A stretch of DNA of 64,000 nucleotides from an uncultured Chlamydiae bacterium (GTDB taxonomy: Bacteria; Chlamydiota; Chlamydiia; Chlamydiales; JAJFMB01), in assembly GCA_963696295.1 (NCBI GenBank), contig CAVOJR010000001.1, positions 2,464,001 to 2,528,000 of the forward strand. Reading direction: 5' to 3'. Shown one piece after another: positions 13,801-15,908 of this stretch. The number at the start of each line of letters is the position of its first letter. The first letter of the stretch is position 1. The notes under the pieces were generated by a model, which saw only the letters and a list, made by a program, of their open reading frames with translations, ran no database searches and was not told where the DNA came from. Made by a program: the position numbers and the translations under genes.

Positions 13801-15908
13801 ATCGGGGCGCACTCTTTGGGTAGAAGCTCTTTTTCGAGCAGGGCAAAGTAAAGAGGGCTGCTATCATCGCAGGATAAAAGCTCCAACAGGCTCTTGTTGA
13901 CCTTTTCCCCATTCGGCCAGGCGCGTACTATTGGGATTGCCTGGGCTATAAGATCTTGGTGATGAATGCCTTGTGGATCTTTATGTTTGGCTATAGCGCA
14001 CGCGTCGGTGAAGGTGCGCCCTTCTGCAGTAAAGCCTGGCATGGAAGTGAGTTCAGCTCTAATTCTCAGGGCGAGACCCAGATCCGCTTTTAAAAACGCA
14101 TCAAAGAGAGCGATCCCCAAACTGACTGAAGGGTTCATTTTCCATTTGGCGAAGGCGATGCGGCAGATCTCTACAACACCCGATTTTGCTAAGGTGAGCA
14201 CCCACTCTTCCTCTTTCCTCAAATCCCACTTTGGATAGATTTGGCGGCGGCTCAAGCACTCTTCCAGCGGGGCTATCAGCCGCTCATTCCTTCCGGCGGC
14301 CAAAAAAAGATCTAACACTCTTGGCAAATCGAGGCGGGGGTGGAGCAGCAGGCACTGGATGGCTAGCAGAGGCTCTGCAAAGGATTGCGAAAGATCGAAG
14401 AGATCGGGGAGCTGCAGACATTCCAGATAGGGGAACACCTGTCTCGATTCGTCGTAGCAATAGGCTTTGGGAAGAAATGCCTCATAAAGGGGTTTTAGAC
14501 GGGGATCTGAGGGGATAGTTCGGATTTTCAGCGGAACCACGTAGGTATGGGAGTTTCCAAATTGCCATTGCATGGCAGGCTCGAAGGAGCTTTCCGTAAG
14601 AAAGGCTTTTACCCATTTTTTTTCAGCGCCGGTAAACAGGTAAAAGAAGGCCGAAATTTGGAGCGCTGCTTCAATCTGGCTAAAGGGGATTTCTTCTTTG
14701 TAAATGGCGTCGTAAATCACTTGACCTTCAGGCCCAAGCGACTCTCGTGAGAGGTTGGCGAGTTCATGGACTTTCTTCGCGACCGTCTGGAAATTCCAGG
14801 AGCAGCCCTTTTTTTCGGCGCAGGCGAGGCTATTGAGCATCAGGAGGAGGAACGAGAGGCCTTCTGCCGGCAAGTGGTTTTTTGCCCCGTTATAGAGCAG
14901 GCAGGCCGCCTTTTCTTCGGTTAAGACCTTGATCTGGTCATAAAGGTGGTTTTCCGCCTCTTTTGGCTCGTCGATGAGAATTCCTTTGATCTGAGCGATG
15001 AAGTAGCGGAAATAGGCCCTCGCATCGCACTTTTCGAGATTGGTAAAGCGCGCTCTTTTCATTTTCAAGTCCGCAGCGGCCTGGGTCGATCCCTTAGAGC
15101 TGTTCAGGTAGATCCCTTCAACGTTATTGAAGGGTTTATAGAGCCTGCGTATGCCTAGCTGCTGGTCATCCATGCGGAAGAGGGAGGGGCTTTTCAGTTT
15201 TCTGACGATGATGAATTCGATGGGGGGCGAGCCGAAGGCGGCTGTCATAAAGAGCTGCTCCTCATCCTCCTGAACATGCCATTTTTGAAAGCCGGTATTG
15301 CGGATCAGCTGGAGATTATCGGAGTCATTGCTCTTTAATTTGTCGGGCAGGGCGCCCGCCAAAAAGTCCATCTGTTGCTTCAAACACTTTTTAAAATCGC
15401 TTTTGATGATATCGCCGGACAGTTGAAAGCGCACATCGGTATCGTAGCAGGTGTGTTCATCCATCTCCTCAGCCTCAGTCAAAAAGCCGTAAGAGCGCAT
15501 GCCGTCAGTGGCATGCTTTCGGGTCAGTTTTTGCACCACGCTGCCGATCAGAGCGATCTCTTCAATCGGAAAGGCCGTTGAGTCTACCACAAAGGCGATC
15601 GCCTGATCCAGATTCATCGGCGTGATCCAATAAAGGTCCTGCCGGGAGCTTTCGATTTTGAAATCAATTTGACTGATCCAAGCGGCGACAAACCTTTTTT
15701 CTTCCGCCTGCATAGGGGGGAGATGCTGAGGAACATTGGTGCATAGTCCCTGGGAATTGATCCGCCCCTCCCGTTTCCATCTGGCGCGAAAGACGTCCTG
15801 GGGGAGGATTTCAGGGGAGAATTCCCTGACCGTTTCTACGGTGGCTTTAAAAGAAAGCGTGCAGGAAGCGGGGGCAGGACCGGCGATTGTGAAAGTAGTG
15901 ACTTGCAT
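10833..15908 (-). CDS. Giant protein with N-terminal Pol-beta-fold (FAM46/TENT5-like) nucleotidyltransferase domain and long helical C-terminus
   Basis: 1691-aa ORF; IGS(121-123), DTD(156-158), IEF(230-232) and downstream motif series; GGAGG-like RBS (GAGGTTGG) upstream. Confidence 0.6.
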   Translation of the reverse strand: MQVTTFTIAGPAPASCTLSFKATVETVREFSPEILPQDVFRARWKREGRINSQGLCTNVPQHLPPMQAEEKRFVAAWISQIDFKIESSRQDLYWITPMNLDQAIAFVVDSTAFPIEEIALIGSVVQKLTRKHATDGMRSYGFLTEAEEMDEHTCYDTDVRFQLSGDIIKSDFKKCLKQQMDFLAGALPDKLKSNDSDNLQLIRNTGFQKWHVQEDEEQLFMTAAFGSPPIEFIIVRKLKSPSLFRMDDQQLGIRRLYKPFNNVEGIYLNSSKGSTQAAADLKMKRARFTNLEKCDARAYFRYFIAQIKGILIDEPKEAENHLYDQIKVLTEEKAACLLYNGAKNHLPAEGLSFLLLMLNSLACAEKKGCSWNFQTVAKKVHELANLSRESLGPEGQVIYDAIYKEEIPFSQIEAALQISAFFYLFTGAEKKWVKAFLTESSFEPAMQWQFGNSHTYVVPLKIRTIPSDPRLKPLYEAFLPKAYCYDESRQVFPYLECLQLPDLFDLSQSFAEPLLAIQCLLLHPRLDLPRVLDLFLAAGRNERLIAPLEECLSRRQIYPKWDLRKEEEWVLTLAKSGVVEICRIAFAKWKMNPSVSLGIALFDAFLKADLGLALRIRAELTSMPGFTAEGRTFTDACAIAKHKDPQGIHHQDLIAQAIPIVRAWPNGEKVNKSLLELLSCDDSSPLYFALLEKELLPKECAPISQREFLKAHERGDLERASQILTWAKEQKVKLQTPQDCALLEQMIVDASAKNNDAAVLKHIQEVAKLQKLSDKAREALRKVAAKKKEAVFELARSTTPNLHIEAFHLWKKHYATDLALAEEIYHTLPYEEEDALVDLSLAILAGSKKKIPEDMIVLLEKRMKELLPAMLRSACQINKEPLRKAVHTAVKAHLEAGEMDEAIALWRMAKGQQIGAFKYFQEMPAPKSPFFRRLLQANLLSPSEASQGVNILIQGKETDDIAAILEDLSKIALKEYPQELSNLLETDCEGLAKGVLALPCALPSALSAPFTRLIESFVQKGDLDQAGIYYDLCAAKGLKITCREILRKKTEQAIEAKNKAVIPLLQELLELDLLEKAHQEGLLEAPVEGSALLALSLQNGSPGLILTLLKKVKKCEESLKPQIQSFCEREAFSLPALELFSCLKSLGIPLRLPVSDQWLPLVATLPDLVPFLPLAQAFPYLSLPERTRLLLQDESFANYAPQVARELKGSPEALQILVKYQVQEPLLWIEALAKCAEPLYCWKMIGEQEKLLSQEMDKFNLLQKQVLLSLGKTKDPLIAKLLTNKDELERQVPEKVLIQVLPALFLGCPEGDELINARMNWHPYFSKFERIALLNVDLKMHLLLSARNHLDLEGEIEALEQFCLKAEILQVKESMSLALAKVFEKCKKPTDSLFNLCRQILNLGLIDPFLVVSHLSAGLEDKYFELSLSYIQIGLDKLNGEPPVMTKRSCELIFLNCAGSDEKKVLIQLFRVLNHAKAPSLFSSKFGFDGFYLDVIVKGLKAMNTAAAYDADYLTQMANRLKSITEIYRDHQSSFMQLVKQLDTAIVGLLFHTKAEESLAKDLDAKYRTNMLKAYEKNREQDHVVKFMVMLRHVNMLKEFTAAYSRAEQNREVMDRLLDATVANMESCHWSLFNTFPIEMEEILYQFCLACAATKDKIWMKTASAIMISQKYYERFENKDYAAKILTLFKK

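Follow-up and report, generated by a model that had tools for sequence, protein, structure and literature searches.

Giant proteins of environmental chlamydiae are predicted to begin with a TENT5/FAM46-type nucleotidyltransferase domain

The stretch of DNA analysed here (the window) comprises 64,000 nucleotides from an uncultured Chlamydiae bacterium (GenBank assembly GCA_963696295.1, contig CAVOJR010000001.1, positions 2,464,001 to 2,528,000). Its minus strand carries, at 10833..15908, an open reading frame (ORF) of 1691 amino acids (aa) with an ATG start. The product, P0001, is predicted to begin, behind a leader, with a nucleotidyltransferase domain resembling that of the TENT5/FAM46 proteins, as an earlier note based on the letters of this DNA had suggested. 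As judged from sequence profiles and a structural model, P0001 and its relatives form a bacterial family that is a distant sister of TENT5/FAM46 and differs from it in architecture and lineage, both being new. The family is a large, paralogue-rich and apparently undescribed one of giant proteins in environmental chlamydiae. With regard to function, the chances seem about even that the domain is an active TENT5-type nucleotidyltransferase adding nucleotides to RNA 3′ ends, and the whole protein a secreted effector acting on host RNA. The gene and its parts are as follows.

10833..15908, minus strand: whole gene, 1691-aa ORF, stop codon at 10833-10835; genome place C1:2474836-2479920
15729..15908, minus strand: aa 1-60, N-terminal leader preceding the modelled domain (composition, homologue alignment)
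14730..15728, minus strand: predicted TENT5/FAM46-type nucleotidyltransferase, catalytic and helical domains, aa 61-393 (profile, AlphaFold2, Foldseek, VIA-align)
15540..15545, minus strand: G122-S123 (hG[GS] motif), counterpart of TENT5C G73-S74 (HMMER alignment)
15435..15443, minus strand: D156-T-D158 ([DE]h[DE]h metal-binding motif), counterpart of TENT5C D90/D92 (HMMER alignment)
15216..15218, minus strand: E231, third predicted catalytic carboxylate, counterpart of TENT5C E166 (HMMER alignment)
15168..15170, minus strand: D247 in the LF..D motif, counterpart of TENT5C D182 (HMMER alignment)
10836..14588, minus strand: C-terminal 1251 aa, residues 441-1691 (composition, domain searches)

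The homology was detected with a profile built from alignment A3. This alignment has 30 rows, namely aa 61-440 of the window protein and the domains from 29 loci, which are 11–34% identical to the window protein. The loci come from a search with a 4-sequence profile that matched 27 of the 401 genomes of the order, in giant open frames with the same N-terminal domain. Residues G122, D156, D158, D247 and G309 are conserved in at least 90% of the rows. Against the sequences of the PDB, the A3 profile finds TENT5C (7cqz_A) with E = 5.3e-20, profile positions 7-293 being aligned to residues 18-304. The six best matches are TENT5A, TENT5B and TENT5C only, and the next one is an unrelated designed protein with E = 0.0085. 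HMMER pairs IALIGS with NGS (G73/S74), YDTDVRF with KDLDLIF (D90/D92), PIEFII with VELKFV (E166) and LFRMDD with FEFSVD (D182). The "NH" motif of the helical domain likewise falls on its TENT5 counterpart, and so does the K..G helix. Both the resemblance to TENT5 and the motif-by-motif correspondence, which the earlier note had given, are thus borne out by the profile and by HMMER's own alignment. The 1691-aa ORF and every peptide string quoted in that note are present in the translation, and its residue numbers are exact by codon check: G122 at 15543-15545, S123 at 15540-15542, D156 at 15441-15443, D158 at 15435-15437 and E231 at 15216-15218. A conserved R160 stands directly after the D156-T-D158 motif. 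The domain extends over aa 61-393 by structure and aa 62-439 by profile; the span 14770-15630, originally assigned to it, corresponds to aa ~93-380 and lies inside.

The identity of the chlamydial domain to TENT5 is about 12–14%, and searches with one or a few sequences gave little. A single-sequence phmmer search of P0001 against the PDB returned a chance match only, and the 4-sequence profile put TENT5A on top with a non-significant E = 0.18. P0001 found nothing in Pfam and NCBIfam except for a chance match to cyanophycin synthetase (E = 0.11). A scan of the bacterium's own genome with the Pfam model PF07984 gave two sub-threshold matches elsewhere and none at the P0001 locus. Word-index homologue searches yielded P0002, P0003 and P0049 only, P0002 (1660 aa, 42% identity) being the sole relative found by the first search, and a contig search with alignment A1 revealed no relatives. 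In the ESM Atlas there were weak leads, the best score being 0.91 to unnamed clusters, with 0.88 for an NTP_transf_2 cluster.

The predicted structure points the same way. With A3 as input, AlphaFold2 modelled the N-terminal domain with a predicted local distance difference test score (pLDDT) of 89.4 and a predicted template modelling score of 0.86; with a 2-sequence alignment the pLDDT was 37. In a Foldseek search of the PDB, ranks 1-10 are occupied by FAM46C, FAM46A and FAM46B chains (E about 5e-12 to 1e-10 for ranks 1-9), the top match having template modelling (TM) scores of 0.64/0.72. From rank 11 onwards the list continues with class-II CCA-adding enzymes, which have E about 1e-5 and TM about 0.3. 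VIA-align superimposes residues 1-333 of the model on residues 13-346 of a FAM46B chain with Z = 24.9 and a root mean square deviation of 3.6 Å over 302 of 329 residues. Seven full-length TENT5 entries score Z 23.6–24.9 and a shorter TENT5C chain (8eqb_B) 18.1, as compared to at most 10.8 for CCA-adding enzymes, 9.8 for E. coli PcnB (3aqm; 8.4–10.8 for both kinds taken together) and about 5 for cGAS, TdT, GLD-2 and Cid1 (cGAS at most 5.6). Hence the Pol-beta fold anticipated by the earlier note is what the model displays, and P0001, which has no match to PF01743, does not look like an ordinary CCA-adding or PcnB enzyme. In the model, aa 61-393 is a TENT5-type two-domain fold, made up of an enlarged catalytic domain and a helical domain like the PAP/OAS1 SBD. 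By both sequence and structure alignment, the carboxylates of P0001 appear equivalent to the TENT5C triad.

To assess how well the putative catalytic site is conserved, 42 distinct domains were compared, each spanning 250 or more profile positions and drawn from 79 matching frames of other genomes; one of the domains is N-terminally truncated. G122 is kept in 41/42, G or S at position 123 in 40/42, D156 in 41/42, D158 in 40/42 and an acid at position 231 in 40/42. Beyond the triad, F244 is kept in 35/42, D247 in 33/42 and H345 in 36/42. In human FAM46C, G73, S74, D90, D92 and E166 are described as consensus catalytic residues whose substitution by alanine abolishes the poly(A) polymerase activity, and the myeloma mutant D182Y has negligible activity, according to the text of PMC8286142. 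The acidic triad was thus rightly reported as intact, D156, D158 and E231 being present in P0001 and kept in 40–41 of the 42 homologous domains. To judge by these alignments, the motif pattern in P0001 is not due to chance.

One might suppose that the fold is catalytically dead and serves as a binding platform, for example by mimicking or sequestering partners of host TENT5. Degenerate enzyme folds are common in giant scaffold proteins, and a few members of the family have indeed lost motif residues, such as the domain at L032 with GE and D.Y in place of the signature. We consider this very improbable for P0001, since P0001 itself and nearly all of the 42 domains keep every catalytic residue. 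Furthermore, the GS/DxD/acid signature is intact in all five paralogues of the bacterium's own genome, despite the lack of any BLASTP similarity (E up to 1e-3) between P0001 and the three of them that were compared.

These five paralogues, P0001 among them, were revealed by a six-frame scan of the genome with a hidden Markov model. They lie in frames of 1695, 1629, 1696, 1647 and 1247 aa, all with the domain at the N-terminus. The 1696-aa frame, the second paralogue, is about 47 kb from P0001 and partly inside the window.

62913..64000, minus strand: second paralogue, C-terminal 361 aa, runs off the window end; C1:2526916-2532003(-), 1696-aa frame

In the phylum, the A3 profile matches 79 of 400 scored genomes (one further genome was unscored), mostly in open frames of 1200–3400 aa. 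Matching genomes are distributed unevenly among families: 25/46 in f32, 10/23 in f30, 5/6 in f38, 5/5 in f46 and 5/5 in f27, vs. 0/35 in f43 and 0/29 in f36, the latter having genomes of 1.0–1.3 Mb. Since the proteins were not found in these 29 reduced genomes, they do not seem to be part of core chlamydial biology. There are several divergent paralogues per genome, with a copy number that varies in a birth-and-death-like manner. When 1.84 billion cluster representatives were searched exhaustively with the profile, 881 matched at E ≤ 0.001, 613 at ≤ 1e-10 and 249 at ≤ 1e-30. Most of the matching proteins have 1200–3300 aa and carry the domain at residues ~60-450. The 881 are clusters at 50% identity, and their total may include eukaryotic TENT5 clusters; the best 150 of the 881 are all of the bacterial type. 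Among 172 family sequences, the domain starts at a median residue of 68 (10th–90th percentile 47–92), and 158 of them have at least 1200 aa. By their source names, two clusters come from metagenome-assembled genomes of Waddliaceae and Chlamydiia; both are called "hypothetical protein", and one other named cluster is called "pentatricopeptide repeat protein". For members of a family with such names, the present results offer a first domain assignment.

A separate observation concerns G002, a 2.1-Mb genome from the same taxonomic family as that of the window. The copy there which best matches the window-based profiles (G002:C1:948722-952855, L003/L008) is split: the TENT5-like domain lies in a 488-aa frame, and the helical part goes on in another frame overlapping the first, which indicates a frameshift or a pseudogene. 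The domain of this split copy passes the cut-off of the Pfam family NTP_transf_7 with 27.4 bits.

A minority branch of the family bears on the question of the substrate. In 4 of the best 150 clusters (P0066, P0067, P0128 and P0134) the domain is C-terminal and stands behind arrays of pentatricopeptide repeats (PPR; 77–156 bits). When the PPR region of P0066 was used as a phmmer query, the matches were confined to the four PPR clusters and their members. P0066 matches, over residues 416-1518 and with E = 2.9e-121, a 1556-aa frame in chlamydial genome G260, which is 94% complete with 1% contamination.

G260:C43, L086 1252-5541, minus strand: PPR-fused frame of G260; PPR 76.9 bits, PPR_2 78.2 bits, A3 match E = 4.3e-80

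PPR arrays are RNA-binding modules. As they are fused here to the same domain, they argue that the domain works on RNA, and these fusions represent a natural experiment tying it to sequence-specific RNA recognition. PPR proteins without a TENT5-like domain were also seen in other chlamydial genomes.

By analogy with TENT5C, the domain in aa ~61-393 would act by two-metal catalysis and add nucleotides to RNA 3′ ends without a template. The nucleotide would probably be adenosine monophosphate taken from adenosine triphosphate (ATP), as in TENT5. The leader of about 60 aa may carry a putative secretion signal. It is basic (isoelectric point 8.9), rich in Thr and Pro, and alignable in homologues from about aa 40. 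The C-terminal region of about 1250 aa, which is Leu-rich and evolves fast, could select the target, the partner or the location. Residues 441-1691 contain 16% Leu and 10% Ala, are rich in Leu, Ala, Glu and Lys overall, and show internal repetition in iterated searches. They have no match in Pfam, the PDB or the ESM Atlas and no transmembrane-like segment (best 19-residue Kyte-Doolittle mean 1.55). Outside the closest subfamily, which has five sequences, only aa ~560-760 of this region are recognisable. Within the subfamily, conservation of aa 401-1000 equals that of the enzyme domain and is lowest in the last 400 residues. From its composition, the region is plausible as an alpha-helical scaffold for targeting or partner binding. 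The last step, more weakly supported, would be type III export followed by action on the RNA of the host, presumably an amoeba.

The genome is chlamydia-like. It has 3.43 Mb in two contigs and encodes the chlamydial histone-like protein Hc1 (77 bits; in the control, 1 of 14 genomes matched) and four ATP/ADP translocases (579–655 bits; in the control, none matched). The matching sequencing runs listed are four soil metagenomes with small shares, and no RNA run is among them. A probable export gate of the type III secretion system (T3SS), matching the HrcV/SctV type, lies at C1:256084-258176 (+). Matches to the secretin family are below the cut-off, and the Pfam model of the T3SS needle matched no genome, controls included. 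Two ordinary genes of the PolyA_pol family (PF01743), encoding 413 and 417 aa, are located elsewhere in the genome. The effector idea rests on the eukaryote-type domain, the expansion of paralogues, the failure to find the family in reduced genomes, the housekeeping enzymes already present and the leader of about 60 aa. The probable T3SS export gate and the median domain start at residue 68 were also counted as effector-like traits.

Several results weigh against P0001 being a secreted RNA-tailing enzyme of the TENT5 type. Neither the whole protein nor aa 61-420 matches any Pfam family even at E up to 10. The gathering cut-off of NTP_transf_7 (27 bits) is passed by only 2 of the 30 aligned homologues (27.4 and 33.8 bits) and by 1 of 27 representatives (28.9 bits). 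The Pfam check suggested in the earlier note therefore fails for P0001 and succeeds for these few relatives. Because it lies mostly below this cut-off, the chlamydial family is filed here as a distant sister of TENT5 rather than as a member at the level of Pfam; a minority of it may already be tagged by automatic Pfam annotation. The spacing from S123 to D156 is 33 positions vs. 16 in TENT5C, which makes the insertion 17 residues longer. According to Pfam, P0001 has no PPR repeat and no recognisable RNA-binding module. The T3SS export gate is read in three adjacent frames (383, 381 and 122 bits, in open frames of 282, 212 and 383 aa), each below the whole-protein cut-off, which points to a frameshift in the gene or to indel errors in this part of the assembly. 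Finally, no conserved chaperone or operon partner of P0001 was found when the genomes G007 and G002 were compared: its neighbours are not conserved at the G007 orthologue, and the G002 stretch gave no tblastn match. Downstream of P0001 there is a 200-aa ORF whose acidic product has a predicted signal and, at the C-terminus, a hydrophobic stretch.

Some of these points lend themselves to other explanations. The Pol-beta fold supports many chemistries, including those of the AMPylators of the DrrA/SidM type and of cGAS and the CD-NTases. The acceptor site could be reshaped by the long insertion that separates GS from DxD, and P0001 is without an RNA-binding module. An active nucleotidyltransferase with a non-RNA acceptor, which AMPylates or otherwise nucleotidylates a host protein or makes a nucleotide second messenger, would agree with these features. 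It nevertheless appears quite unlikely. The best matches are specifically to TENT5 across both domains, including the helical substrate-binding one, whereas cGAS is far behind; D247 and H345, conserved in TENT5 outside the triad, are mostly kept; and RNA is favoured by the PPR fusions that occur within the family.

It is also conceivable that the enzyme is retained in the bacterial cell, where it would add tails to chlamydial RNAs, for example as a regulator of RNA stability in the developmental cycle, with a C-terminal region that binds bacterial partners. The poly(A) polymerases of bacteria have RNA of their own cell as substrate, as stated in the text of PMC7049688. P0001 has no signal peptide or transmembrane segment, and no effector chaperone adjoins its gene. 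This explanation must, however, accommodate the two canonical PolyA_pol-family genes already in the genome. Five very divergent paralogues with a birth-and-death-like copy number would be unusual for housekeeping RNA enzymes, and the reduced f36 genomes do without a detectable member. We regard it as unlikely. An enzyme that is exported and modifies the 3′ ends of host RNA is the reading we prefer; it predicts a new effector activity, host-RNA tailing, in obligate intracellular bacteria of amoebae.

Other features of the window were noted in passing. A short-chain dehydrogenase ORF with a TTG start, at 15903-16793 (+), shares 6 nt with the P0001 start codon, which lies on the opposite strand; since the Pfam match of this dehydrogenase begins at residue 41 only, translation probably starts at a site further downstream. 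Hypothetical proteins of 572 and 720 aa are encoded at 16897-18615 (-) and 19481-21643 (+), the second being largely coiled-coil-like. They have in common a region of about 100 aa with the motif PG..(L/F)(I/L)P.G...H...DG....T..NTG.G (BLASTP E = 3e-7), and neither has a Pfam match. From the sequence, this common region may be an undescribed domain. Tandem arrays lie at 9500-9681 (27 bp × 7.1 copies, at the end of a HIT-domain ORF) and 9757-10115 (108 bp × 3.3 copies, 96% matches); on the minus strand, the 108-bp array yields a repeat ORF of 143 aa that is highly basic and looks spurious. At 21714-27378 (-) there are UvrA-like pieces, namely an 877-aa ORF (UvrA_inter and ABC) and two shorter ones of 207 aa (ABC) and 299 aa (UvrA_inter), which look like a fragmented or duplicated uvrA-type gene. 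The G+C content is about 60% at 22–26 kb vs. about 41–52% on either side.

Among known systems, the LGR genes of Protochlamydia amoebophila (Eugster 2007, PMC2216083) are similar in being giant (~5.6 kb), paralogous and, in the account given there, unassigned in function, with a non-repeat part of ~1350 aa. LGR proteins, however, end in arrays of 28-residue leucine-rich repeats (LRR; PMC2216083). The idea that the TENT5-like giants are LGR proteins was dropped: more than one LRR-like match occurs in 0/173 family sequences and a Pfam LRR match in 0/27, the LGR proteins being compared by their published description.

Closer in general design are the NEX and PEX effector families with F-box, BTB or RING domains and LRR or TPR repeats (Domman 2014, PMC4209131). 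According to that report, they likewise combine an N-terminal eukaryote-type domain with a variable, repeat-like C-terminus, have many paralogues whose copy number varies among relatives, and were not found in the small-genome family. They differ in that their domains are related to ubiquitination and not to RNA nucleotidyl transfer, and the TENT5-like proteins are far larger. Secretion has been shown for representatives of NEX/PEX, whereas export of the TENT5-like proteins is predicted (PMC4209131 for the former). In the same main text, one expanded chlamydial effector family is said to have a DUF294 nucleotidyltransferase, and a TENT5-like family is not described.

The class-II CCA-adding enzymes and PcnB (PF01743) share with P0001 the Pol-beta core and a neck-like helical domain, and they are its second-best structural matches. 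The structural match is much weaker than that to TENT5, and there is no sequence or Pfam match to P0001. This same CCA/PcnB-like core and helical domain is why FAM46, described as metazoan-specific, was called "prokaryotic-like" in fold in the text of Hu 2020 (PMC7049688).

The nearest system is that of the eukaryotic TENT5/FAM46 proteins (TENT5A-D, PF07984), which have the same two-domain fold, G-S, D-x-D, E, the D182 counterpart and the "NH" motif. The chlamydial domain differs in that it heads a protein of 1691 aa, as compared to 336–402 aa for the solved TENT5 chains; TENT5 proteins have roughly 400 aa. The TENT5/FAM46 proteins are described as eukaryotic cytoplasmic poly(A) polymerases and are medically important (myeloma, osteogenesis imperfecta). 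FAM46 is described only in Metazoa, choanoflagellates, Ichthyosporea, Amoebozoa and Guillardia in the main text of Kuchta 2016 (PMC4857005), whose supplementary taxonomy may list bacteria. The main text of Kuchta 2009 (PMC2794190) names no bacteria in the FAM46 group. No chlamydial or bacterial FAM46/TENT5 member was found in searches of a library of papers, supplements aside. A bolder proposal, which we put forward tentatively and with some doubt, is that environmental chlamydiae possess a vast arsenal of secreted RNA-tailing enzymes, the first bacterial effectors to rewrite host RNA 3′ ends, and that these are a prokaryotic sister of TENT5 resulting from ancient gene transfer between chlamydia and host. 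Such a transfer would explain both the "prokaryotic-like" fold of TENT5 and its patchy spread over Holozoa, Amoebozoa and a cryptophyte. A bacterial sister family would give TENT5 a prokaryotic context and make its origin directly testable by phylogeny.

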